Assembly (NCBI GenBank): GCA_044351785.1
Contig: JBILFC010000001.1
Span: 1-34,218 of the forward strand
DNA: 34,218 bases
From: Bdellovibrionota bacterium
Lineage (GTDB): Bacteria; Bdellovibrionota_C; UBA2361; SZUA-149; DAOLCO01
Direction: 5' to 3'
Shown here: positions 3-26,763 of the stretch, one piece after another
Layout: each line of letters begins with the position of its first letter
Numbering within the stretch: the stretch's first letter is position 1
Translations under genes and position numbers: made by a program
Notes under the pieces: model-generated
Told to the model about the DNA's origin: nothing
Seen by the model: the letters and a program-made list of their open reading frames with translations, nothing else
The model's database searches: none

Positions 3-1727
3 ATTCCTGGTCTAGTTAACTTCTCTAATGAAGAAATTGAATCTGCCTTAACATCTCTTTTAGGCCTAACTAAGAAAGAAGATCTTCCTTTAATAGATGC
101 TGATACTTTAAAAGGCCCTAATATCGATATAGAGACAGCTGTAGCTCTGTTAGACTCTGGCCTATCAGATTACATCTCATTAAATTTTATACATAAAGCT
201 AACGCAATTCCTAATGATCCATCCTACAGCTCTCTATGGGGGATGAATCAATCTAATGACATCGACATTAATGCACCAGAAGCTTGGGATAAAGTAAATC
301 CTGATGAAGTAAGAAACACAGTAGTGGCAGTTATAGACACCGGAATCAACTACAATCACCCTGATCTTAAAGATAACATGTGGATAAATACAGCAGAGCA
401 AGCCGGCAGCCCTGGAGTGGATGATGATGGAAATGGTGTTATTGATGATATTCACGGATATAATGCGATTAATAATACTGGCAATCCCCTTGACGATCAA
501 TCCCATGGTAGTCACTGTGCTGGAACAATAGGTGGTGTTGGAAACAACGGTCAAGGCGTAGCAGGTGTTGCATGGAATGTTAGACTCATGGCATTAAAAT
601 TCCTTGATTCAGCTGGTAGAGGAAGCGATTCTAATGCAATTAAAGCAATTAACTACGCTGTACAGAATAGAAACAAAAGTGGAACACTCAAAGTATTAAG
701 TAATTCTTGGGGTGGGTCTGGATACAATCCAGCTATGCTCTCAGCAATACAGTCTGCAAACAACGCAGGACTACTATTTGTAGCCGCAGCAGGAAATGAC
801 AACAAGAATACCGACTCAAGCGCTAACTATCCATCGAATTACGATGTTCCTAATGTAATATCGATTGCTGCTCTAAATCAAAATGGAAGTAGGGCTTCAT
901 TCTCCAATTATGGAGCCTCCACTGTAGATATAGGAGCACCTGGTGTAGGAATTTATAGTACGGTACTAGGTACTGGGTATGCCTCTTATAACGGAACATC
1001 CATGGCAACTCCTCATGTAGCTGGCATTGCTGCTCTTGTCTACTCTCAAAGTTCACTTACAACTCCAGGAGAGATGAGAACGCTATTAATGGAAAGCTTT
1101 AAACCTATTCCAGCCTTACAGAATTTAATGATTGTACCTGGAATTATTGATGCGAGCAAGGCTTTAACCGATAATACGAACTCTGCTCCTAATCTTCAAG
1201 ATATACCTAATCAAAAAATAAGAGATTTAACTAAGGTAATCACTGTACCCCTTGTAGCCTCTGATGCTGAGGATAACCAATTAACATTTAAAGCTGAAAT
1301 TCAAGGGCAAGCTCATGAAAAAATAGCCGCTGATATAGACAAACAATATGGCTTCACCGCATACCTTCCACAATTCGATAATTTCTATGGCTTAGCTGAA
1401 AAGAGATTAACCTCCCAATCTAATATGCAGTATTTTATATTTAACGATGGTAGTATTTACGAATTCACATTCCCCACTTATAGGTATAAAGCCAAAGTAG
1501 ATCCAAGGTATTATTCTAATCCTAATGGTTTAGTTAATGCACATCCACTCAGTTACAACAATCTGGCAATAATTACAGTAACAAATGGCAAACCTGGCAA
1601 ACTAGATATTAAACTAGCAGATAATTTTAGCGGTTCATTTTCAATTTTAGTTGAAGTAAGTGATGGAAACAAAACTGATTCCAGTACTTTTTTAGTAACA
1701 ACAACAGAGCCTGAAAGTTGCTCTTAG
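3..1727 (+). CDS. Subtilisin-like serine protease (peptidase S8), 5'-partial, with a C-terminal split cadherin-like repeat
   Basis: The frame of the 243 ATG stays open back to position 3 with no stop (IPGLVNFSNEE...FIHKANAIPNDPSYSSLWGM), so the gene starts upstream of the window. Catalytic triad motifs are present: VAVIDTGI (Asp codon 336-338), SHGSHCAGTIGG (His 514-516), GTSMATPHVAG (Ser 999-1001), plus oxyanion SNSWGG. The C-terminal ~170 aa (nt ~1195-1710) look like a cadherin-like repeat (VASDAEDNQLTF ... FSILVEVSDGN) interrupted by an insert. Confidence 0.9.
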   Translation: MPGLVNFSNEEIESALTSLLGLTKKEDLPLIDADTLKGPNIDIETAVALLDSGLSDYISLNFIHKANAIPNDPSYSSLWGMNQSNDIDINAPEAWDKVNPDEVRNTVVAVIDTGINYNHPDLKDNMWINTAEQAGSPGVDDDGNGVIDDIHGYNAINNTGNPLDDQSHGSHCAGTIGGVGNNGQGVAGVAWNVRLMALKFLDSAGRGSDSNAIKAINYAVQNRNKSGTLKVLSNSWGGSGYNPAMLSAIQSANNAGLLFVAAAGNDNKNTDSSANYPSNYDVPNVISIAALNQNGSRASFSNYGASTVDIGAPGVGIYSTVLGTGYASYNGTSMATPHVAGIAALVYSQSSLTTPGEMRTLLMESFKPIPALQNLMIVPGIIDASKALTDNTNSAPNLQDIPNQKIRDLTKVITVPLVASDAEDNQLTFKAEIQGQAHEKIAADIDKQYGFTAYLPQFDNFYGLAEKRLTSQSNMQYFIFNDGSIYEFTFPTYRYKAKVDPRYYSNPNGLVNAHPLSYNNLAIITVTNGKPGKLDIKLADNFSGSFSILVEVSDGNKTDSSTFLVTTTEPESCS

Positions 1728-1742
1728 TAAATTAGGTTTTAG

Positions 1743-4700
1743 ATGCCAAGTTGTATTAGGCTCATCAGTACTCGTTTAATTCTATTATTGTCTTTGATGA
1801 CAATAAATAGCTTTAATGCTGTTGCTGAGGATCAAGAAGTTACTCTATTTAGTCGCACCTTAAAAAATGGTGAACTAAGAGGTGAATCAGCTTTACTTGA
1901 AAAACCAGAAAAGACAGCCGGGATTCTATCAAATTTAATCACTAACACTAAAGTTATAAAAGATAATGGCCCATCATCTAATCGAGTAGATTTAGTATTT
2001 TTAGGCGATGGATATACAACCGGTGACTCTTCAAAGTTCGATTCTCAAGTGGTAAGCATCTCTGATGGTTTATTCCAACAAATGCCATTAAGTGAATATA
2101 AAAACTATTTCAATCTACATCAAGTTTTCTCACCATCAGTTCAATCTGGTATAGACAATGATGGACAACTTGGAATAGATAAAAATACGGTGTTGAATGG
2201 TAAATTTTATTGCCAAGACGTAAAGGAAAATATCTGCGTAGATGTATCTATCGCCTGGGAACTTGCTGCTCAAGCAAGAGACTTTGATCAAATTTCAGTT
2301 TTAGTAAACTCTAGCTCTGATGGGGGAACTGCCTATCCATTTAGCGATATCTCAGTGGTACCAGGAGGAAACGGTCTAGTAGCTAGTAATCTTGCTCACC
2401 AAGTGGGACATAGCTTTGCTAATCTTGCAGATGAATATGACAATGGTAGTTGGCCTACCTACACTGGCTTTGAACCAGCAGAACCAAATGTTTCTGCTCA
2501 AAATACTGAAGCCATGCTCACACAAAAACTTAAATGGCATCAATGGCTAAGCATAGATTCTGGCGCTAACTTTGGTGGAATAATAAATACCTATGAAGGT
2601 GCAATGGGTCATAAATATTCAATTTATAGGCCAACTGAAAACTCTAAGATGAGGAATCTAAATGCTCCATTCAATAACCCATCTATAGAATCTTTTATTA
2701 AAGAAATCTATAAAAAGGTAAAACCTATTGATAATGCAACGTCAGTGGAAACTCCTCTTACTGGTTCATCAGTGATAAGCGTAACCCCCCTTCAACCAAT
2801 CGGTAGAAACTTAACAATTCAGTGGTATGTAGATAACACTCCTATAGCAGGGGCTAATGCTAAAACTTTTAGACCAAATGACTACCCTATAAGTGATGGT
2901 ATGCATGCAATCTCAGTAGAGGTTTCAGATGATACTCCACTTCTAAAAGACGAAGCCTTTAGAACACAGTACATGAAGGAAAAACGCACTTGGAATGTAC
3001 CTATTGATCAAAATGCACCCATCATCACAAAACATCCTGCAAGTGTTTCTGTATTTATTGGAGCGACAACCAATCTATCGGTAACTGCCATTGGCGAAGA
3101 TCTAAAATACCAATGGTTTAAAAACGGCGTTAAAATTGACGGCGCTACTCAAACATCATATTTGACTCCAGGAGCAATAAGAGAAAAAGCTGACTACTAC
3201 GTAGAAGTCTCCAATGTTCAAGGTACCTTAAGAAGCAATACAGCTACTGTAAGTATTAAAAATAGACTACCCGCATATTCAGGTAGCACTTCATTAACTC
3301 TTTCTAGATTAGAAGAAAAAGAAATTGCTTTTGAAATTAACGATGAAGATGGTGACTCTCTATCTTCAGTTTATACAATTGAAGCCGCGACTAATACTGG
3401 CGTAACAGTTTCATTAGCTTCCAAGAGCCTTAAAATTAAAGCTAGCTCTGCTTACCTAGGACAATTTAGTATAAAATTAAATTTTACTGATTCTTATGAC
3501 ACAATTTCTATACCAATCTCGGTGAACGTTGTTAATAATGCTCCGGTCATTGATGCCATAAATGATTTAACTAGACTATGGACTACTGATAAAGCATCGG
3601 TTGAAATACTTGCTAGTGATAATGACAGCATGGACACAGTCAGTCTCTCTGCTAATCTTGCTACAGGATTCTCAGCACCTGTCAGCCTATCTATGAATGG
3701 TAAAGTGCTAAATATCGATCCGCAAGCAGGTTACTATGGTAAATTTAATGTAACGGTTAGGGCGACGGATGGATTTACAAACACATTTAGAACATTTTCC
3801 GTAAACTGGGCAAATGATAGCCCTGTAATAGATCAGGTGGCACCAATCCGCTCGCATTACAAAGTAGATAAAATTATAGTACCGATAAATGCGACCGATC
3901 CTAATGGTGACACATTACAACTTTCTGCTTCTATTTTGCCTATAAATAACCTAGTTACAGCTAGCTTAAGTGGCAAGACTCTTACCATAGATCCTTCCCC
4001 TACATATAGAGGAGCTAGTACTCTTCGTGTTACAGCTAGTGATAGTGCTCTTAGTAGTGTCATGAATACTAGTCTAGAAATTTATAATAATGCTCCAGTT
4101 ATTGCTCCGATTTCTGCAACAAATGTTAATCAGAATAAAAAATCAGTATCAATACCTGTATCAATATCAGACCCCGATCCAGAAGATAGCGCTACTTTAA
4201 CAAGCAGCGTTAGACTTCTTACTTCTGGAGCAAGTGGTGTTCAGGTTAAATTAGAAAATAACAACCTAATAGTCGAATCTAGTCAAAACTTTTCCGTACC
4301 TCTGTTAGTAGAAGTAAAAGCTACCGATGGAGATTTAACAGCAGTAAGAAATGTTTATCTTAGTGTACTTAATACAGCTCCCTTACTAACTAATATAGAT
4401 GAACAATTTATTCATCCTATTAAAGAAGACATAAGAACCATAGATTTAATAGCAACAGACATAGATAATGATAGTATTACGTATACCGCGGAAGTAGTAA
4501 AACCCAATGCCAAAGCCCCTACCCTATCTGTTTCAGGAAATAAATTATCCATCAATACTATCAACGACTTTCTTGGATCATTCACAATCAGAGTTATCGC
4601 TAGTGATGGCTTAAGTGAAGTAGCAAAAACATTCAAAGTCACAACTTATAATACAGATCCCGAGTTAAATGCCATTTGTGATCGTTCTGCACCGGCAACG

Positions 4701-7700
4701 AAGTTTCCAATAGAAATCCCGCTAATCGCATCAGATCCTGACAAAGAAGACTTAACTTTTGAAGGAAAAATTGAAAGAAATTCTTTACCATTTTTACTAA
4801 AGGCTAAATATAACTTTGACGCTATCAGATTTAGACCTAGTAATGGTCTAGGATTAGGTGAAAAGTATGTCAGTGGTTACGAAACAGACCCAGATATTAA
4901 ATTCTGGTACTATATTCTTCCTAATGGGGACCTATATAGGTTAAATAAAACACATAAGGAAAGCCAGTTCCTCCTAAAATTACCTGCAGGATACTATGAA
5001 AATCCCGATATCCTAATAAATGGTGATATCTCTGGAACTATTCTCAATGCTTTCTCAATATCTTTTGAGGGAAGTAAGCTTAAAGTTGCGCTCTCAAGAG
5101 CAGTACAAGGATCTGTTCAAATAAGGGTTAGAGCTAAAGATTACTTCTCATTTAATGAAAAATCTTTCATTCTAACTGTAACAGAAGGAAGATTAAAATT
5201 AGATGATGTTCCCGACATGAACATCCATTGGAAGGAAGAACCACGATCTGGATCATTAATAGCTAAAGATCCAGTAACTGGCTTAACACCAGATGATATG
5301 AGCTACGATGTGGCAGAATTTGACGGTTCTCTTGCAAAAAGTCTAGATGACCAATACAATTTTCATGTATCAAGAAATGATCAATATGATGCACAGATTC
5401 CACCTGATAACTTCACAAATAGAGGTGAGAAATATATTAGAGCTTACAAGATTAGTTATTTAAACAATGTACCTTCATACGCAGGGATTGATGTATTTGC
5501 GATACTTCCAAATGGTGATTTATATTTATCTCCACCAAAGGCTCAAAATACACAATACTACAGTTTAGAAAATGCTACATTAATAGCAGAACTTGATAAA
5601 GTCTATTATAGAGATACATCTTTACTAATCAATGCAGCAAGTGGAGCGGGAACAAATCTTATTATAAACGGAGATAATACTAGCTTCACGGTGGAACAAA
5701 CTCCTGGATTCTTAGGGAAAGTCATCTTAGAAGCAAGAGCATGGAAAGGTATCGCCTCAGACAGTAAAACATTTATTGTTAACATATACGACAATGAACC
5801 TACGCTGAATGTTCCACTTAATTGTGATGAATTTGGCTGCAAGTTAATAAGAAACTGGAAAACAAACGAAATTAGGCTTCCAATCACCCTCAGTGACGTT
5901 GACCCACTTGATAGTGTAACTTCTAAGGCCTTTGAAACGGATCCTTCCTTAAACCCAGCTAATTCAGCTTCTGAATATTCCCTAAAGTGGAATCATAAGA
6001 ATGGCCAATTCGATAGAGATGGCTGGAGAGAAATACATTTTGCAGGAACTTATCAAAACTCAGAAACTGATATCGCTTTAACTACTGATGGGAAATTATA
6101 TAAATGGAATGGTAATCCACAGAATAGCATTCTATTAACTCAAGTTCCTAGTTCATTCCATGAGCTAGGATACACCTTAGATTCTTCTGTCAATACTTCT
6201 AAGCCTAGCTTGTTAAATCATCCCGAAGTAAGAGTTGAAGGCTCTGAATTAGTAATTACCCCTAAAGCAAATACAGTTATAAATTCCGGTATAATAGGAT
6301 GGGCAAGCGACGGAATGAAACGCGGATTCCTCAAATTCCCCGTATTCATAATTAATCAGCAACCTCAAATTGGAGCCATTGCAGATAAAACTGTTCACTG
6401 GAGAGACAACCTCATTACCGAGAATATCTTGGTTAGTGATCCAGATGGAGACACCGTTTCAAACTTGAATCTGACAATCAATCCTATTAGCATTGATCCA
6501 GCTATCGATTATAATCTAACTAACCTAGTTCTTACTTTAAAATCTAAATTTGGATATTTAGGAACCTATTCATCCACAATCTTTGTGACTGATCAGGGTA
6601 ATCTAAGCAGTGCTCGATCATTTAATACTACAGTCTTCAATACTGCTCCAGTTCTAGAATCTATCGGCAATAAAGATATTGATTGGAATATGAATACGTT
6701 AGAAATTCCATTCACGATGAGCGATGCAGATGCTAATGACTCCGATAAGTTAATATCTATGGTATTTAACGGATCTGCTTCTGACTTTACCGATTTCCTA
6801 GTAAATAAGCACAAGTTTACTAAAACTGGAGCAGGTGCTACCAATTCTCTTGGACTATCTGAAGTACACTTCAAAGGTACAGTAGAGAATCAAAGTAGAG
6901 AATTTATAGTATTGCCCTCAGAGGCTATCTACCTTGTGAGTGGTACTAATTTAGAGATTAAAGGATTCCTAGCACCTGGTACATACAGTAACCCTAACAG
7001 ACTATTAAGCATTGTTAATCCGAACTTTGCTCCAAAACATTCTGTAAGCACCGACGGAACAAAAATCATTTTAAGTAAATCATCAGGGCTAACTGAACCA
7101 ATCATAGTTACAGCTTGGGCAACTGACACGATTCAAGCTACTTCTGAAACATTTACAGTAAATATCATAGACAACGCTCCAGTATTACCAGAGCTAGCGA
7201 CAAGCTATGAAAGACATTGGAGACCAGGGCTACTAGAACTTCCTAATTTCCCTTCAATTGACGAAGAAGGTGAAACCATTAATTATCAAGTAACTTCAAG
7301 TCCAGCAGGATTACAACACTCTATTAGCTCTAGTATTCTTTCTGTAAAACCAACTAATGCTAATCAAATTGGAAATTACACTGTAAACATAGTAGCAACT
7401 TCAGGATCTAAATCTTCAAGCAAGTCCTTTAGCTATAACTTAACAAATGGTGCTCCATCAATTGCACCTCTAGGAGCACAGACCGTCGTTGGTTACAAAG
7501 AATCTTACTCTCAACCCTTTACCGCAACAGATCCAAATTCAGATCCTCTAACTTATACTACCAGCCTAGTAGGACCTTCACCATCTAACTTCTTAGTTGC
7601 TGTAGCTGGATCTACGATTAAAGTTTCTCCTAAAACTCCGCTAGCAGGTACTTACACTATAAACCTAAAAGCTTCAGATGGGCCTTCTTCAGCAGATGCT

Positions 7701-10700
7701 TCAACACAAATAATTTTCCAAAATAGAGCGCCAACATTTAATGTTCCGTCAGCGATGGATATCCCATGGAAAACAAAAGTGGGTAGTCAAACTCTAGTTT
7801 TCAGTGATCCTGATGATGACACTCTAACCTTGACCCCTACCATCAGTGATCCTACTGTAGCCACTGCTGTGATAAGCGGAAATAAAATAAATATCGATCT
7901 AAAGAAATATGCTCCAAGTTTTATAGTTAAAATAAGATTAAGCGATGGAGCTAACTCTATAGACAGAGAATTCCCTGTTTCAGTTAGCAATCTTAAACCA
8001 ACTCTAACAGGCTTACCACCAACTAAAGACATACACTGGAATACAAATTCATTTACGCAATCATTCACAGTAGCAGATGCAAACAATGACACTTTAACAG
8101 TTACATCTAAAATACTAAATAACACAGTTCCTGCTAGCGTAACTATTACAAATAGCCTCGCTACTATAGATGTTACAGAAAAGAAAATGGGCGAATTAAA
8201 CTTAAATATAAAAGTTGCTGACGATGTCTCAAGCACTGAAGGCAACATGAAAGTTACCTTTACTAATACAAAACCTAAAATCTCAGAAATTGCTAACCAA
8301 ATTATTTCAACTGGCATAGAAAAGACTCTTGAACTAGAAGCCTCAGACGCCAATAGTGATGAATTAACACTTTCCGCTATAAAAATGTCTTTGGAAGAAG
8401 TTGCGTTTGACCTAGATAAAATGTTTAACTTTGAACAAGGCGAAACCAACTTTGGATTTAATAAATTAGGTAATAACGAAAAATACCTAAGAGGTAGCGA
8501 TCCTGTAAGAAAAACTCCTCTTAATTTTGTTATCTATCCTAATGGCAGACTATATATCTGGACTGGAATATTAACGAATAGCACTTTTTTAGGAAGTATT
8601 CCTACCGAATTGCATGCCAACCCTACTCTCCTTATCAACGCTATTGCTCCAAATGCTTCAAATATTTCTTATACCGCAAGCATAACTGGTTCTACATTGA
8701 AATTAAAAGCAATTAACGACTTTGAAGGAACCTTCTGGATTAGAGCGGCAGCCACAGATACTCAAGAATTAGCACCAATGTATTTTAGAGTTAATTCCTA
8801 TAAGGAAGTTACTTCAGGTGGTGGCACTGATCCAAAAGAGTGCGAAACTAAAGAGACAGAACACGACGGAGAATGCAGTCAATCTGGGAAGTCAATGTTC
8901 ACTGCCGAAGGCAGAATAGGAGATACTGTGACTGGGGCAGGAAATAGAACTTTTGAATTAGATATTGGCAAAAGTACTAGTGGGCCTTTTGCTAGTGGAC
9001 AAACAAGTAATCATATTTGGGTAAGTGGAAAGAAAGAAAGCTTCTCAATAACTTTTGATCCAATTAATAAAGTATGTAATTTTGTATTAGGAGGGAAAAC
9101 CGTAGTATATAAAATTACAGAAGATGTATTCTCTCTTAGTGACATTTTAATAAGAACTAGACGAGGGAATACTCAGTCCAGTATGAAAATTGATTCTCTA
9201 AAAATCAATGGTAAAACAATTTCTAATTCCGTGTACGCTGATGGGAATTCTAACCAAGTGCGAACTCTACAAATTCGTTCAGTGAAGGAACTAAAGGATA
9301 AATTCACCTTAGAGGGTGCTGCTACTATGATATTCTCCTCTGATGTGAAGAATTCAGAACTTGCATTCCAAATATCCTTTACGAAATCAGACAATGCGCC
9401 TGAGACTTGTGAAGATAGCGATGAAGATGATCATGATGACGACGATTCAGATCACGATGATGAAGACGATAATGATGACGATGATTCTAACTCCAGAAAA
9501 GTAAAAATATGTCATTATCCTCCAGGAAATACCTCTAACCCACAGACAATTACTGTTTCTAAGTCTTCATTATCAGCTCACTTAGCACACGGCGATGTGA
9601 TTGGAGAATGTCCAGGCGATCCTCAAGATCCAGGCACGGGTGAAATTTCATGCGAAGCTAAGCAGTTGTTTGCTAGCCCTAACTACACTCTTTGGAATAG
9701 CTTCTTAAATATGATCAATATTCTAGAATTGACTAACTCTACAGCTAACCCAATTCCAGTGAAGATCTCCTTCTTCTCAATATTAGGTGAGCTTGCACAT
9801 GAAAGAACAATAGTTGTCCCAGCGACTAACCAGTTCGACGTTATTATCAATGATTTCCCTGGATTCGTGAAAGATTCCTATGGTGTTGTAAAACTCGAGT
9901 TTACTGGAAATCTTGATGGTAGAATGAGTTTCTATAGACCTACAACTGGTCTTACTTCTTATGACTATGCATATTCAATTCCTTTAGCTGATGCGAATTT
10001 TGGAACAACTGCAATAAGTTTCAATACCTTCCAACCAAGTCAAAAGCCTTCTGAGCTTAATAACTTAGTAGCTAACTGGTTAAGTATAGTAAATCTTGAT
10101 TCAGCGACACAAAAATATAGTGTCTTCACTTATGATATGTCTGGAAAACTTATTCTTAGAAGAGAGCTTGAAATTCCTTCATTCGGAAGAGCCGATGTCG
10201 ATGGTGGCCATGGTCTTGCAGGCCCTAATGTAGTCGGTTACCATAAGGTTATCCCCTACAATGTGACAGCGGAATACATCGCTCAAATAACTAGATTCGG
10301 TGGGAATGCTGCTGCTGGATTTGCCCCTTCAGCATATAAATTTGCCTTCCCATTATCCGCTAAGCTTGGTGCAAGCGATCCTATTTATGTTCCAATTTCG
10401 AATAAATTCGGGGAATCAAATTGGATAGAAGTTGTAAATATTCTTGATCAAACAGTACAAGCTGCAATCAACTACTACTCAATTGATGGTAGGTTACTTG
10501 AATCTGCAGATGCTTACATCCCAGGGAATGCTCAAATACATTTTAATGCTAGTGCTCAATTAGCAAGTGGAGAGACTGGTTATGCCGTAGTCGTTCCAAG
10601 CACTCCATATTCAATTGTTGCTCAAAGTATGGGTTACCTTAGAGAGCAAGCAACTGGCAGCGTAACTTCAGTTTATGGATCTCAAGCTAGAAGAGCTGTA

Positions 10701-11027
10701 CCTTGTGTTCAATCTGGCGCTTACAACTTATATCTAAATATGCAAAACTGGTTACTAGTTGCAAATACTACTAATGACACTATAAAAGCCGTGGTAAAAT
10801 TCACTGGACCTAATCTAGCTAGCCAGAAGTCCCTAACCCTCGCTCCTAGGGCATCTGTTTACCTACCAATTCATGGCAATACGGAAATTGGTGCTAAAGC
10901 AGATACTTATGGACTCATCGCGGTATATCCCGAGGATTCTTCTCTAAGATTATTCTCCGAAGTTATGAGACTTAAGTATAAGGCTGATGGTTCACCTGAC
11001 TTCTCAATGCCAGTCCCAGTTAGATAA
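1743..11027 (+). CDS. Giant (3,094 aa) secreted mosaic surface protein with an M64-like domain carrying HQVGH, Ig-like domain, 15 cadherin-like repeats and a composite C-terminal region
   Basis: Single uninterrupted ORF starting 15 nt after the S8 stop. N-terminal signal peptide (LILLLSLMTINSFNAVA/ED). M64 signature RVDLVFLGDGYT ... LVNSSSDGG ... AHQVGHSFANLADEYD. Ig-like segment KYQWFKNGVKIDGATQTSY...YYVEVSNVQG (~3015-3260). Repeats carry [ST]D[PA][DN]xDxL motifs (3261-8803). C-terminal modules occupy 8804-11024. Confidence 0.9.
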   Translation: MPSCIRLISTRLILLLSLMTINSFNAVAEDQEVTLFSRTLKNGELRGESALLEKPEKTAGILSNLITNTKVIKDNGPSSNRVDLVFLGDGYTTGDSSKFDSQVVSISDGLFQQMPLSEYKNYFNLHQVFSPSVQSGIDNDGQLGIDKNTVLNGKFYCQDVKENICVDVSIAWELAAQARDFDQISVLVNSSSDGGTAYPFSDISVVPGGNGLVASNLAHQVGHSFANLADEYDNGSWPTYTGFEPAEPNVSAQNTEAMLTQKLKWHQWLSIDSGANFGGIINTYEGAMGHKYSIYRPTENSKMRNLNAPFNNPSIESFIKEIYKKVKPIDNATSVETPLTGSSVISVTPLQPIGRNLTIQWYVDNTPIAGANAKTFRPNDYPISDGMHAISVEVSDDTPLLKDEAFRTQYMKEKRTWNVPIDQNAPIITKHPASVSVFIGATTNLSVTAIGEDLKYQWFKNGVKIDGATQTSYLTPGAIREKADYYVEVSNVQGTLRSNTATVSIKNRLPAYSGSTSLTLSRLEEKEIAFEINDEDGDSLSSVYTIEAATNTGVTVSLASKSLKIKASSAYLGQFSIKLNFTDSYDTISIPISVNVVNNAPVIDAINDLTRLWTTDKASVEILASDNDSMDTVSLSANLATGFSAPVSLSMNGKVLNIDPQAGYYGKFNVTVRATDGFTNTFRTFSVNWANDSPVIDQVAPIRSHYKVDKIIVPINATDPNGDTLQLSASILPINNLVTASLSGKTLTIDPSPTYRGASTLRVTASDSALSSVMNTSLEIYNNAPVIAPISATNVNQNKKSVSIPVSISDPDPEDSATLTSSVRLLTSGASGVQVKLENNNLIVESSQNFSVPLLVEVKATDGDLTAVRNVYLSVLNTAPLLTNIDEQFIHPIKEDIRTIDLIATDIDNDSITYTAEVVKPNAKAPTLSVSGNKLSINTINDFLGSFTIRVIASDGLSEVAKTFKVTTYNTDPELNAICDRSAPATKFPIEIPLIASDPDKEDLTFEGKIERNSLPFLLKAKYNFDAIRFRPSNGLGLGEKYVSGYETDPDIKFWYYILPNGDLYRLNKTHKESQFLLKLPAGYYENPDILINGDISGTILNAFSISFEGSKLKVALSRAVQGSVQIRVRAKDYFSFNEKSFILTVTEGRLKLDDVPDMNIHWKEEPRSGSLIAKDPVTGLTPDDMSYDVAEFDGSLAKSLDDQYNFHVSRNDQYDAQIPPDNFTNRGEKYIRAYKISYLNNVPSYAGIDVFAILPNGDLYLSPPKAQNTQYYSLENATLIAELDKVYYRDTSLLINAASGAGTNLIINGDNTSFTVEQTPGFLGKVILEARAWKGIASDSKTFIVNIYDNEPTLNVPLNCDEFGCKLIRNWKTNEIRLPITLSDVDPLDSVTSKAFETDPSLNPANSASEYSLKWNHKNGQFDRDGWREIHFAGTYQNSETDIALTTDGKLYKWNGNPQNSILLTQVPSSFHELGYTLDSSVNTSKPSLLNHPEVRVEGSELVITPKANTVINSGIIGWASDGMKRGFLKFPVFIINQQPQIGAIADKTVHWRDNLITENILVSDPDGDTVSNLNLTINPISIDPAIDYNLTNLVLTLKSKFGYLGTYSSTIFVTDQGNLSSARSFNTTVFNTAPVLESIGNKDIDWNMNTLEIPFTMSDADANDSDKLISMVFNGSASDFTDFLVNKHKFTKTGAGATNSLGLSEVHFKGTVENQSREFIVLPSEAIYLVSGTNLEIKGFLAPGTYSNPNRLLSIVNPNFAPKHSVSTDGTKIILSKSSGLTEPIIVTAWATDTIQATSETFTVNIIDNAPVLPELATSYERHWRPGLLELPNFPSIDEEGETINYQVTSSPAGLQHSISSSILSVKPTNANQIGNYTVNIVATSGSKSSSKSFSYNLTNGAPSIAPLGAQTVVGYKESYSQPFTATDPNSDPLTYTTSLVGPSPSNFLVAVAGSTIKVSPKTPLAGTYTINLKASDGPSSADASTQIIFQNRAPTFNVPSAMDIPWKTKVGSQTLVFSDPDDDTLTLTPTISDPTVATAVISGNKINIDLKKYAPSFIVKIRLSDGANSIDREFPVSVSNLKPTLTGLPPTKDIHWNTNSFTQSFTVADANNDTLTVTSKILNNTVPASVTITNSLATIDVTEKKMGELNLNIKVADDVSSTEGNMKVTFTNTKPKISEIANQIISTGIEKTLELEASDANSDELTLSAIKMSLEEVAFDLDKMFNFEQGETNFGFNKLGNNEKYLRGSDPVRKTPLNFVIYPNGRLYIWTGILTNSTFLGSIPTELHANPTLLINAIAPNASNISYTASITGSTLKLKAINDFEGTFWIRAAATDTQELAPMYFRVNSYKEVTSGGGTDPKECETKETEHDGECSQSGKSMFTAEGRIGDTVTGAGNRTFELDIGKSTSGPFASGQTSNHIWVSGKKESFSITFDPINKVCNFVLGGKTVVYKITEDVFSLSDILIRTRRGNTQSSMKIDSLKINGKTISNSVYADGNSNQVRTLQIRSVKELKDKFTLEGAATMIFSSDVKNSELAFQISFTKSDNAPETCEDSDEDDHDDDDSDHDDEDDNDDDDSNSRKVKICHYPPGNTSNPQTITVSKSSLSAHLAHGDVIGECPGDPQDPGTGEISCEAKQLFASPNYTLWNSFLNMINILELTNSTANPIPVKISFFSILGELAHERTIVVPATNQFDVIINDFPGFVKDSYGVVKLEFTGNLDGRMSFYRPTTGLTSYDYAYSIPLADANFGTTAISFNTFQPSQKPSELNNLVANWLSIVNLDSATQKYSVFTYDMSGKLILRRELEIPSFGRADVDGGHGLAGPNVVGYHKVIPYNVTAEYIAQITRFGGNAAAGFAPSAYKFAFPLSAKLGASDPIYVPISNKFGESNWIEVVNILDQTVQAAINYYSIDGRLLESADAYIPGNAQIHFNASAQLASGETGYAVVVPSTPYSIVAQSMGYLREQATGSVTSVYGSQARRAVPCVQSGAYNLYLNMQNWLLVANTTNDTIKAVVKFTGPNLASQKSLTLAPRASVYLPIHGNTEIGAKADTYGLIAVYPEDSSLRLFSEVMRLKYKADGSPDFSMPVPVR
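3261..8803 (+). repeat. Array of 15 diverged ~90-aa cadherin-like/Ig-like repeats inside the giant CDS; five carry a roughly 75-100 aa insert
   Basis: Recurrent unit boundaries N[NTD]APV[IL]. Acidic motifs SDNDSMD, TDPNGDTL, SDPDPEDS, TDIDNDSI, SDPDKEDL, SDPDGDTV, SDADANDS, TDPNSDPL, SDPDDDTL, ADANNDTL, SDANSDEL. Each unit closes with ...G.F.i.v.a.Dg. The repeats are conserved at protein level only, with no long identical DNA blocks seen. Confidence 0.8.
9411..9485 (+). repeat. GAT/GAC/GAA-rich low-complexity tract encoding EDSDEDDHDDDDSDHDDEDDNDDDD
   Basis: Read codon by codon from 9411: 25 consecutive codons, of which 21 encode D or E, interspersed with H, S and N. Confidence 0.9.
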
Positions 11028-24024: not shown

Positions 24025-24603
24025 ATGTACAATTTACTGCTCAACAAGTTCTCAGAACAACATTTTCTTAAACAATTAACACCATTATCAAAAACTACTA
24101 AGGTAATAACCTCAGACACATCTGGCAGGGGAGTAATTGCAACGATAGATATCCCAGCAGGCACTCTCCTAGGAATATATCCAGGTGCACATATAAGCTA
24201 CAAAGAGTTTTTAGAAAAAGAACAATTTGTAAGTCGCTCTGTAAAATCTGCCTATATGTTCTCTAAAGATATCATTATTGATCCAACAGATATGTTTGGT
24301 TACCTAACCGACACTCCAGATCACCGCATAGCTCTAATTAACGAGGCCAGCCCCTCACAACAAACAAATATCGCAGCAATTAATACAAGAAGAAATGTTT
24401 GGTATATTAGCATTCAAGACATTAAAGCTGGGGAAGAATTATTTACTAACTACGGCAACCAATATAAAAGAAATTATTCTTCCTCTGATGCAGGTAATCA
24501 AATTTTTAGCGATAATCAAATTAAAATCTTACAAGGTTTGGCAGCTAAATATCTTTGGACGAAAAGAGGTATCGGTGAATTGTTAATAATATTATTAAAT
24601 TAA
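24025..24603 (+). CDS. SET-domain protein (putative lysine methyltransferase, 192 aa)
   Basis: GRGVIATIDIPAGTLLGIYPG (GxG plus beta-hairpin), YMFSKDIIIDPT, ALINEASPSQQTNI (in place of the RFxNHSCxPN motif) and IKAGEELFTNYG (the post-SET ELxxxY motif). Confidence 0.7.
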   Translation: MYNLLLNKFSEQHFLKQLTPLSKTTKVITSDTSGRGVIATIDIPAGTLLGIYPGAHISYKEFLEKEQFVSRSVKSAYMFSKDIIIDPTDMFGYLTDTPDHRIALINEASPSQQTNIAAINTRRNVWYISIQDIKAGEELFTNYGNQYKRNYSSSDAGNQIFSDNQIKILQGLAAKYLWTKRGIGELLIILLN

Positions 24604-25809: not shown

Positions 25810-26763
25810 CTAGAATCCGCTATACCCAGAACACTCTCCTTGATAACTCACATTAATACCGGCCTCTGTAGCTTTACACTCATTAAAATAGGTCTGTGCA
25901 TTTGCGCCACATACCGGTGCATATACTCGAGAGCATGTCGGAGCCCCACATTCACCCTCGTATAATACTGTAGTTCCAGCTGCTCTAGCATAGCAAGTGT
26001 TACCATAAGTTTCACCATCTGCACCACAGACAGGCACAAATTCCTGCGAACAGATAGGAGCAGGGGCAGACTCCTGTCTGCAAATCCCTTGATGAGCGAC
26101 TCCCACCCCCGCTTCGGCAGCATGACAATAACTATCATATGTTTTGCCATCGACACCGCAAACCTTTCCAATAACTTGTATACAGTAAGGCCCATCAGTT
26201 GACTCCTGCTTGCACTCACCTTCATAAGAGACAGTAGCGCCAGCATTTTTAGCTTCACAAGAATTACTATAGGTCTTACCATCTGTCCCACAAACAGGCT
26301 TAATCCACTGTGGGCATATATCAGATCCTCCCGTGCTAGGAGAATCTGGCCTTTTACTATTATCAATATTATTATCCACACTCGTACGTACATCTTCAGG
26401 CGTTTTTCCTACTACCACATCTATCTGAGCTGGTTTTGAATTATCAACTAAATTTGTTACAGATACAGTTGTGTTTACAGCAGGACCATTAAATATAATT
26501 ACTGCCTCTTGACCTACCTCACTAGCAATCTCAAATTTGCCCTCAGAATCTGTAATAGTAGTATCGCCAGTTTCTTCGACCGTAACGGAAACATTAGGTA
26601 TCGGCTTTTGATTAGAATCTACGACAGTCCCTTCAAATTGTCTTAAATTTACAGACGTATTATCTCCACCCGTCCCAGAAGTACCACCTCCACATGCCAT
26701 GATTGACACAATTAAAAACCCTAAAAATACTTTGGAACAAACCTTACCAACAAAACAATTCAT
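25810..26763 (-). CDS. Lipoprotein with a CarboxypepD_reg-like beta-sandwich and four tandem atypical Kazal-like protease-inhibitor domains
   Basis: Lipobox SIMAC (Cys24). FEGTVVDSNQKPIPNVSVTVEETGDTTITDSEGKFEI matches the carboxypeptidase-regulatory-like pattern. There are four copies of C-x7-C-G-x-D/N-G/A-x-T-Y-x3-C-x-A-x2-A-G-x9-C. Confidence 0.85.
   Translation of the reverse strand: MNCFVGKVCSKVFLGFLIVSIMACGGGTSGTGGDNTSVNLRQFEGTVVDSNQKPIPNVSVTVEETGDTTITDSEGKFEIASEVGQEAVIIFNGPAVNTTVSVTNLVDNSKPAQIDVVVGKTPEDVRTSVDNNIDNSKRPDSPSTGGSDICPQWIKPVCGTDGKTYSNSCEAKNAGATVSYEGECKQESTDGPYCIQVIGKVCGVDGKTYDSYCHAAEAGVGVAHQGICRQESAPAPICSQEFVPVCGADGETYGNTCYARAAGTTVLYEGECGAPTCSRVYAPVCGANAQTYFNECKATEAGINVSYQGECSGYSGF
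25831..26316 (-). repeat. Four Kazal-like units (aa 150-184, 194-228, 238-272, 276-311)
   Basis: CPQWIKPVCGTDGKTYSNSCEAKNAGATVSYEGEC; CIQVIGKVCGVDGKTYDSYCHAAEAGVGVAHQGIC; CSQEFVPVCGADGETYGNTCYARAAGTTVLYEGEC; CSRVYAPVCGANAQTYFNECKATEAGINVSYQGEC. Period is 44/44/38 aa. Confidence 0.85.

Follow-up and report, generated by a model that had tools for sequence, protein, structure and literature searches.

In adhesins of the RTX type, ligand-binding domains bud out of immunoglobulin-like (Ig-like) split domains, and this geometry is used to recognize them (PMC12077191; PMC10865825). The Big_9 family (PF17963) counts among the stalk domains of fibrillar adhesin-like proteins (PMC8286594). Here we describe Big_9-type repeats that are split in a similar way, in a 34,218-nucleotide stretch of DNA from a Bdellovibrionota bacterium (contig JBILFC010000001.1); we call the whole stretch the window. 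Two neighboring genes on its forward strand encode a putative S8 protease and a giant protein with a putative M64 peptidase domain. Together these proteins contain six Ig-like repeats that are interrupted by an insert, which we call the module. We are highly confident that the six inserts belong to a single family of nested domains of about 80–90 residues, which is autonomous and widespread. The module is absent from Pfam-A, NCBIfam, and the PDB, although the nesting of a domain in a split Ig-like repeat is a familiar arrangement. By analogy with the adhesins, the best explanation overall would be that the module is a laterally displayed, multi-copy binding knob. We give this reading a probability of roughly one half.

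Six copies of a module nested in split repeats

As an independent test, we built a profile from 246 members of the family in other organisms, with the window and its orthologues left out, and ran it against the six-frame translation of the whole window. We found exactly six sites, at 21–62 bits, and the next match had just 4.2 bits. All six sites are on the forward strand. Copy 1 is in the S8 protease (1299–1568; 53.0 bits, independent E-value 3.3e-16), and the other five are in the giant protein: copy 2 (4764–5051; 51.4 bits, 1e-15), copy 3, which is a long variant with extra loops (5310–5666; 41.1 bits, 1.7e-12), copies 4 and 5, which are divergent and are the weakest of the six (5946–6209; 21.0 bits, 3.3e-6; and 6768–7043; 21.0 bits, 3.1e-6), and copy 6, which is the best conserved (8376–8672; 62.4 bits, 3.7e-19). 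Leave-one-out profiles gave 27.1, 46.0, 19.6, 17.6, 22.6, and 44.2 bits for copies 1 to 6, respectively. We also scored 2000 shuffles of each copy, and these topped out at 12.3 bits, as compared to 17.6–46.0 bits for the actual copies.

The six inserts align with each other, at 18–36% pairwise identity. This low identity is the only observation that would favor a resemblance by chance or by composition among loop-rich linkers. Because every copy beats its shuffles in the leave-one-out comparison, the external profile finds these six sites only, and thousands of homologous copies exist elsewhere (see below), we consider that explanation to be refuted already.

A model's earlier reading of the sequence (the original prediction) had proposed that the six inserts are homologous, and the leave-one-out profiles and the external profile both recover all six. 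Its coordinates lie inside the profile sites and agree with them to 25 residues or fewer, but its start for copy 4 (5965) is off-frame by 1 nucleotide. The motifs that it described (the LDxxYNF lead, N..G..EKY, aromatic-x-ILPNGxLY, and Y[YH]xNPxLLxNA) are all real, and they correspond to conserved positions of the wider family.

To see where the repeats are interrupted, we built a 94-position hidden Markov model (HMM) from the window's own intact Ig-like repeats, which are in the giant protein. Fourteen repeats matched the HMM over their full length or nearly so. Another six, of which the S8 protease has one and the giant has five, matched solely in halves. The split repeat in the S8 protease, which hosts copy 1, is at 1185..1715 (+ strand; amino acids 315–491, counting from the ATG at 243), and its halves are at amino acids 315–366 and 452–489, corresponding to HMM positions 1–52 and 54–91. 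The split repeats of the giant, also on the + strand, are at 4656..5192 for copy 2 (amino acids 972–1150, with HMM halves at 972–1015 and 1086–1148), 5196..5801 for copy 3 (1152–1353; halves 1152–1177 and 1302–1353), 5838..6365 for copy 4 (1366–1541; halves 1368–1422 and 1478–1541), 6645..7181 for copy 5 (1635–1813; halves 1635–1667 and 1756–1813), and 8271..8807 for copy 6 (2177–2355; halves 2177–2216 and 2295–2353). No further repeat lies between the last of these and the choice-of-anchor W domain.

In all six, the break is past the acidic loop and the "LTF.." strand (HMM position ~40) and ahead of the strand at HMM position ~47. In intact repeats, the loop at this site reads LP-INNL, VKPNAKA, or VGPSPSN. 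The strand order in an AlphaFold2 model of a split repeat suggests that it is the C-D loop. The halves break at the same loop throughout, as expected from the proposal that the inserts share one topological insertion point in a cadherin-like (Big_9) repeat.

The host repeats belong to Big_9 (59.5 bits on the giant, with a cutoff of 23.6), and they are in tandem. NF012211 (tandem-95) gives 38.1 bits on the giant, which is below its cutoff of 90, so we assign the host repeats at the level of Pfam only. The host repeats are of the same kind as Big_9, NF012211, and other bacterial cadherin-like stalk domains, and like them they form a tandem stalk. The Big_9 and NF012211 models, however, describe an uninterrupted repeat of ~95 amino acids. 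The nested module lies outside of these models, and therefore the split repeats are found as half-matches only.

From 269 copies that share less than 55% identity, we derived the consensus LAY.LDQqyGL...g..yyfN..G.nEKWl.g......WYfILPdG.LY.W.G.....stlvAtLd..yY.dP.LL.nA. The most conserved positions are N22 (91%), G25 (92%), E28 (95%), P48 (87%), G50 (95%), and L80 (89%). AlphaFold2 gave a confident model for an insert on its own (copy 2, 87 residues, using an alignment of 87 sequences), with a predicted local distance difference test score (pLDDT) of 89.7 and a predicted template modeling score (pTM) of 0.80. The modeled elements are a helix at 3–11, strands at 29–34, 41–46, 51–55, and 63–67, and helices at 70–74 and 77–81. 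In terms of the consensus, the module is predicted to comprise an N-terminal helix (LAYxLDQxYGL), an antiparallel four-strand meander (EKWLxG/WYFILP/GxLYxW/LVAxL), and two short C-terminal helices (YYxdPxLLxNA). The autonomous fold that had been suggested for the insert is thus borne out in prediction. A model of the split repeat together with copy 2 (amino acids 970–1152 of the giant, using an alignment of 15 sequences) had a pLDDT of 86.5.

Relatives, partner domains, and history of the module

To find other members of the family, we used a profile of the six inserts and three metagenomic relatives to search 1.84 billion representative proteins, each of which stands for a cluster at 50% identity. 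We found 1303 representatives at E ≤ 1e-3, of which 825 were at E ≤ 1e-10 and 241 at E ≤ 1e-30. A word-indexed protein search with the insert profiles found just 3, 11, and 2 short metagenome fragments, which served as seeds. The original prediction had brought up a pattern, ..NxxGxxEKW..WYFIxPxGxLYxW.., which proves to match exactly the consensus of a large family found within giant proteins with Ig repeats in other phyla. Our search of the literature found nothing specific on the module itself or on M64 peptidases with Bdellovibrio.

The 150 best matches from the family search, along with 11 metagenome fragments, contain 689 copies of the module. Most of these proteins have 3–6 copies (the mode is 4), and some have up to 9. 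An Ig N-half and an Ig C-half flank 221 of the 689 copies, and single nested modules are spaced ~160–200 amino acids apart. Other modules are in head-to-tail arrays with a period of ~80 amino acids, and some arrays sit as a whole within a split Ig repeat. These two settings predominate. Because the module is found both nested in split Ig repeats and in tandem arrays, it is self-contained and portable. In S8 homologues such as P0025, each consecutive Ig repeat is split by a module, with a period of ~175 amino acids (the modules of P0025 start at amino acids 507, 680, 853, 1028, 1203, 1377, and 1552). The unit of the stalk in P0025 is therefore a split Ig repeat plus a module, of ~175 amino acids.

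We also scanned one genome per species, using a 6-sequence alignment of mainstream members and the pattern N[WYV][GY]Gx[GQN]E[KQ]W. We confirmed 221 loci. The best 80 are nearly all from Planctomycetota (including Planctomycetaceae, Pirellulaceae, Fuerstiella, Gemmataceae, Isosphaeraceae, and Phycisphaeraceae), with a few from Myxococcota and Bradymonadia, but the pattern biases this taxonomy towards the mainstream subtype from Planctomycetota.

The partner contexts of the module are all extracellular, and peptidases are prominent among them. Among the 150 best representatives, we found S8 domains in 29, M64 domains in 6 (one of which is the giant from the window), and M10 domains in 5. Other partners include PPC, Calx-beta, PATR, RTX repeats, SdrD_B, and phage-collar domains. 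Similarly, 47 open reading frames (ORFs) from the scanned genomes, nearly all of them from Planctomycetota, include 14 with SdrD_B, 7 with S8, and 6 with Calx-beta. Separately, 5 of these 47 module-bearing ORFs, which were read from stop to stop, match the Pfam family of MMPL transporters; these may be real fusions or an artefact of the stop-to-stop reading.

Could the module be an accessory of the proteases, such as a substrate exosite, or a regulator or protector acting within the protein (for instance, an inhibitor-like unit, an element for autoprocessing, or an aid to the folding of secreted S8, M64, and M10 peptidases)? These catalytic domains are present in 40/150 of the best representatives, PPC (pre-peptidase) domains also occur, both of the carriers in the window are peptidases, and in many S8 carriers the first module is just 50–170 residues past the catalytic domain. 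However, most carriers have no detected peptidase domain and contain SdrD_B, Calx-beta, PATR, RTX, or phage-collar domains instead, and the modules of the giant are 700–2000 residues away from its M64 domain. The I9 propeptide of subtilases has a beta-alpha-beta-beta-alpha-beta topology, and the predicted order of the module (a helix, four strands, and two helices) is unlike it. We consider a protease-specific accessory to be unlikely.

The best external matches of the window's copies lie mostly in proteins with the same architectures. These include giants with M64 and Big_9 (P0057, P0018, P0014, P0028, and P0060) and P0025, which has S8 and Big_9 (NCBI describes it as "S8 family serine peptidase [Bdellovibrionales bacterium]"). 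The closest named homologue of the S8 protease is from a metagenome-assembled genome of Bdellovibrionales. The best external match of copy 1 is the first copy in P0025 (P0025_507), at 43% identity. In the orthologue P0057, the equivalents of copies 4 and 6 are 44% and 52.9–54% identical to them, respectively, as compared to 37–41% for the Ig halves that host copy 6. Within the window, paralogous copies are at most 36% identical to each other, and the S8 copy is 25–26% identical to those of the giant. Because the copies are closer to copies from other organisms than to their paralogues, they are old and were inherited separately, with no recent exchange between the S8 protease and the giant. 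The original prediction described the module as conserved across the protease and its neighbor; a homologous module is indeed present in both, although the S8 copy and the last copy of the giant are each closer to a copy from another organism (43% and 54% identity, respectively).

P0057 is collinear with the giant (42.5% identity overall) and retains all five insert positions, in number and order. By region, the identity of the two proteins is 55.6% for M64, 57% for choice-of-anchor W, 65% for the C-terminal domain, 24–37% for the intact repeats, and 24–37% for the inserts except copy 6 (52.9%). As judged from these sequence comparisons, the six copies are old and individually maintained, and most of them evolve about as fast as the stalk.

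This tempo, and the repetition of the module, bring up a second alternative: the module might have a structural or self-associating role. It could be a brace or spacer that makes the Ig stalk stiffer, kinked, or thicker, or it could make lateral contacts between stalks, including docking of the S8 protease to the giant. The number of copies per protein (mode 4, up to 9), the splitting of all consecutive Ig repeats at a ~175-amino-acid period in S8 homologues such as P0025, the pure tandem arrays with a ~80-amino-acid period, and the stalk-like rates of most copies between orthologues would all fit such a role, and it is stalk domains, not adhesive ones, that are typically repeated (PMC8286594). 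On the other side, just 5 of the ~20 repeats of the giant carry the module, and at conserved positions, while a generic stiffener would be expected to be less selective. Also, seven conserved aromatic positions, together with N22 and E28, would seem to exceed the needs of a one-sided hydrophobic core. A structural role is a serious rival, if a less probable one, and we prefer the binding knob.

The two carrier genes and the rest of the window

The S8 (subtilase) protease gene is at 3..1727 (+ strand) and encodes a prodomain remnant, a catalytic domain (Peptidase_S8, E = 2e-58, 198.5 bits), and one C-terminal split Ig repeat. Its reading frame stays open as far back as nucleotide 3, and the contig end therefore truncates the gene on its 5' side. 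The 80 residues ahead of the ATG at 243 (nucleotides 3–242) have a weak, Fervidolysin_NPro-like match to a prodomain (16.9 bits, with a cutoff of 21), and the Fervidolysin N-terminal prodomain is also present in P0025.

The giant's gene is at 1743..11027 (+ strand). The protein has 3094 amino acids, with a Peptidase_M64 match (7.7e-36, 124.2 bits) and 5 split repeats. For both genes, the peptidase profile scores above its gathering cutoff, so on sequence these are putative S8 and M64 peptidases. The giant begins with a signal-peptide-like N-terminus, followed by Peptidase_M64, an Ig_7-like domain (24.8 bits, under the Pfam cutoff of 27.3), and ~20 Big_9/tandem-95 repeats; then come choice-of-anchor W (4.7e-34), a linker that is rich in Asp, Glu, and His, and a domain of ~455 amino acids. 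Public gene calls disagree about its start (3094 or 3076 amino acids). The giant is the same in sequence as P0013, except that P0013 starts 18 codons later, and it shares a 90% cluster with P0162, which is a 3094-amino-acid call from NCBI on the same 34,218-bp contig. The window is the whole of this metagenomic contig, which is available from both JGI and NCBI. The longer call, with a start at 1743, yields the signal-peptide-like N-terminus MPSCIRLISTRLILLLSLMTINSFNAVA. Only 15 nucleotides separate the stop codon of the S8 gene from the ATG of the giant, so the two genes are probably co-transcribed. Scanning metagenomes with the M64 N-terminus of the giant returned only distant M64 proteins (28–40% identity). 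Near-identical versions of neighboring genes are present on a longer Logan contig of 56.7 kb.

The C-terminal domain of the giant (9645–11027, + strand; amino acids ~2635–3094) has no family in Pfam or NCBIfam. No other part of the giant is as well conserved (65% identity with P0057). The S8 proteins P0025, P0078, and P0041 from other organisms have this domain too, as do P0020 and P0015, and it may have a shared role in anchoring, sorting, or secretion. Just before it, amino acids 2556–2623 (9408–9611, + strand) comprise a run of Asp, Glu, and His, CEDSDEDDHDDDDSDHDDEDDNDDDD, and then a small Cys-framed motif, KICHYPPGN...AHLAHGDVIGEC, with no match in Pfam. An antisense ORF of 220 amino acids (7787–8449, – strand) lies within the giant's gene and overlaps the host repeat of copy 6; it is most likely spurious.

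Elsewhere in the window, whose G+C content is ~37%, a 317-amino-acid protein (25810–26763, – strand) combines CarboxypepD_reg with a Kazal-type inhibitor region, in which Kazal_1 matches four stretches (E = 3.1e-27); its gene shares the contig with that of the S8 protease. To our knowledge, proteins with CarboxypepD_reg and Kazal-type serine protease inhibitors are uncommon in bacteria. A bacterial SET-domain protein of 192 amino acids is at 24025–24603 (+ strand; SET, E = 4.3e-13).

Possible function and comparison with known systems

The original prediction knew of no named domain for the insert, and our searches agree: no entry in Pfam-A, NCBIfam, or the PDB covers it. When we compared the six copies in the window to Pfam-A (2025) and NCBIfam (2026), no match was above any cutoff, and Choline_bind_1 and DUF6593 had no match at E ≤ 10. 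It might still be argued that the module has diverged from within a known family of hairpin repeats, such as the choline-binding (cell-wall-binding) repeat, DUF6593, the unit of a beta-trefoil, or the blade of a PQQ-like propeller. In multi-copy carriers, whole-protein searches of Pfam do match Choline_bind_1 (E down to 1.9e-8) and DUF6593 (E down to 3.7e-21), but these matches are significant only because the repeats are summed, and single modules are under every curated cutoff.

The hairpin of the module, WYFIxPDGxLYxW, does resemble WYYfdsdGxmxtGW from Choline_bind_1 (PF01473), over ~17 residues in multi-copy carriers. However, Choline_bind_1 is a solenoid repeat of ~20 amino acids, and the module has one hairpin per 85-amino-acid unit. 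A single mainstream module has 14.1 bits, with a cutoff of 20.5, and no such structure is among the Foldseek matches listed, so we rejected membership in this family. For DUF6593 (PF20236), ~50 profile positions (60–113 of 146) align to the meander, and the summed scores of multi-copy proteins pass the cutoff, but the module covers just a third of the profile. We rejected this family as well, as single modules have 13.2–16.8 bits with a cutoff of 27 and align to positions ~62–111 of 146 only. DUF6593 is itself uncharacterized, and we found no literature on it.

A profile search of the PDB (2026) found only summed hairpin matches to designed proteins, namely "Bagel" propellers (4.6e-10) and Symfoil/Phifoil trefoils; also, residues 57–101 of FGF-1 align to module positions 27–71 (E = 0.06–0.5), as one unit only. 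These trefoil units (FGF-1 and Symfoil) and PQQ-like blades (the Bagel designs) share with the module a four-strand unit of ~40 residues with a "hydrophobic-x-I-x-P-[DN]-G" hairpin. Their per-domain E-values are not significant, though, and the module differs in its flanking helices and in its predicted ability to fold on its own. With the model of the insert as the query, the best Foldseek match in the PDB had E = 0.69 and a template modeling (TM) score of 0.30, and the best match in BFVD had E = 0.27. Among the 50 PDB matches listed, there was no trefoil, propeller, or choline-binding structure at E ≤ 10. The whole split repeat gave generic Ig matches only, with TM about 0.2. We rejected membership in the beta-trefoils (FGF-type or ricin-type) given the lack of a trefoil among the listed Foldseek matches, the single unit of FGF-1 that aligns, and the prediction that the module folds alone and with helices. 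We also dropped the idea that three consecutive inserts assemble into one trefoil, as a single module is predicted to fold alone and with helices and the copy numbers are not multiples of three.

Because all of these matches cover a hairpin or ~45 residues only, we attribute them to a common beta-hairpin, [aromatic]-x-I-x-P-[DN]-G (followed by x-[LV] in the matched segments). Nothing in these families corresponds to the helices, the N..G..EKW segment, or the YYxxPxLLxNA tail. Descent from any of them is very improbable.

We return to the binding knob. The module takes the place of the short C-D loop in a Big_9/tandem-95 stalk repeat. As it is nested in one loop, its ends should be close together, so it would bud sideways from the rod of repeats as a knob. 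The carriers in the window appear to be stalked and secreted proteases, an S8 subtilase and a giant of the M64 type. We propose that multiple knobs would tether the protease or stalk to a polymeric target by avidity. The target might be a glycan or a protein on the surface of the cell, whether of the substrate, the prey, or the substratum. Candidate contact residues are the aromatics of the meander (W/Y30, W43, Y/F44, Y53, and W55), along with N22 and E28. The more specific claim that the module's job is to bind a ligand or target, which draws on the analogy to split domains in RTX adhesins and on the partner domains, is tentative. A far more speculative idea, which we would not bet on, is that the modules form a class of target-recognition knobs with a new fold, serving as multivalent tethers for secreted proteases and giant surface proteins on polymers of the prey or substratum, with copies that differ in specificity, in surface-attached and predatory bacteria (Planctomycetota, Myxococcota, Bradymonadia, and Bdellovibrionales-like bacteria).

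Several observations weigh against a binding knob. Adhesive domains are usually present once per protein, and it is the stalk domains that are repeated (PMC8286594). The module looks stalk-like in this respect, with 3–9 copies per protein and, in S8 homologues, one in every consecutive Ig repeat. Most copies diverge between orthologues at the rate of the stalk repeats, and copy 6 alone is clearly more conserved. HemolysinCabind (RTX) had no match at E ≤ 0.1 in either of the window's two proteins, and the giant has a signal-peptide-like N-terminus instead; as these proteins lack RTX repeats, the analogy to the RTX adhesins is architectural only. Finally, the insertion is past strand C (in the C-D loop), as compared to after the first strand in the second split domain of AhLap (PMC12077191), which is the only chain path that we compared.

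Whatever its function, the module fills a gap in the catalogues: it is present in over 1,000 protein clusters (at 50% identity), mostly with several copies per protein, and it has no curated model in Pfam-A 2025, NCBIfam 2026, or PDB 2026. Its carriers include some of the biggest and most poorly understood proteins from Planctomycetota and, as far as the small sample of genomes goes, from predatory lineages. Defining the module would turn annotations of "half-repeat plus gap" into a clean architecture. Because it is small (~85 amino acids) and confidently modeled, it is well suited to structure determination and to screening for ligands. If it does bind ligands, this would explain how stalked S8, M64, and M10 proteases stay on their targets. 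The value of the find lies in domain curation and structural work more than in conceptual surprise.

The closest parallel is with RTX adhesins such as AhLap and FrhA. In both systems, a complete folded domain splits an Ig-like repeat of the extender or stalk. The ends of this domain lie side by side, so that it buds off the long axis of a giant surface or secreted protein, and one protein can have several split units. The split-domain architecture is found in the window as HMM halves that flank each insert and as confident AlphaFold2 models of the split repeat with its insert and of the insert alone. In contrast to the adhesins, the budded domain is small (~85 amino acids), is outside of the known families of ligand-binding domains, and recurs up to 9 times or in arrays. 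If the module is a binding knob, then the rule that a split domain marks a functional knob would extend from the RTX adhesins to stalked proteases that are not of the RTX type.

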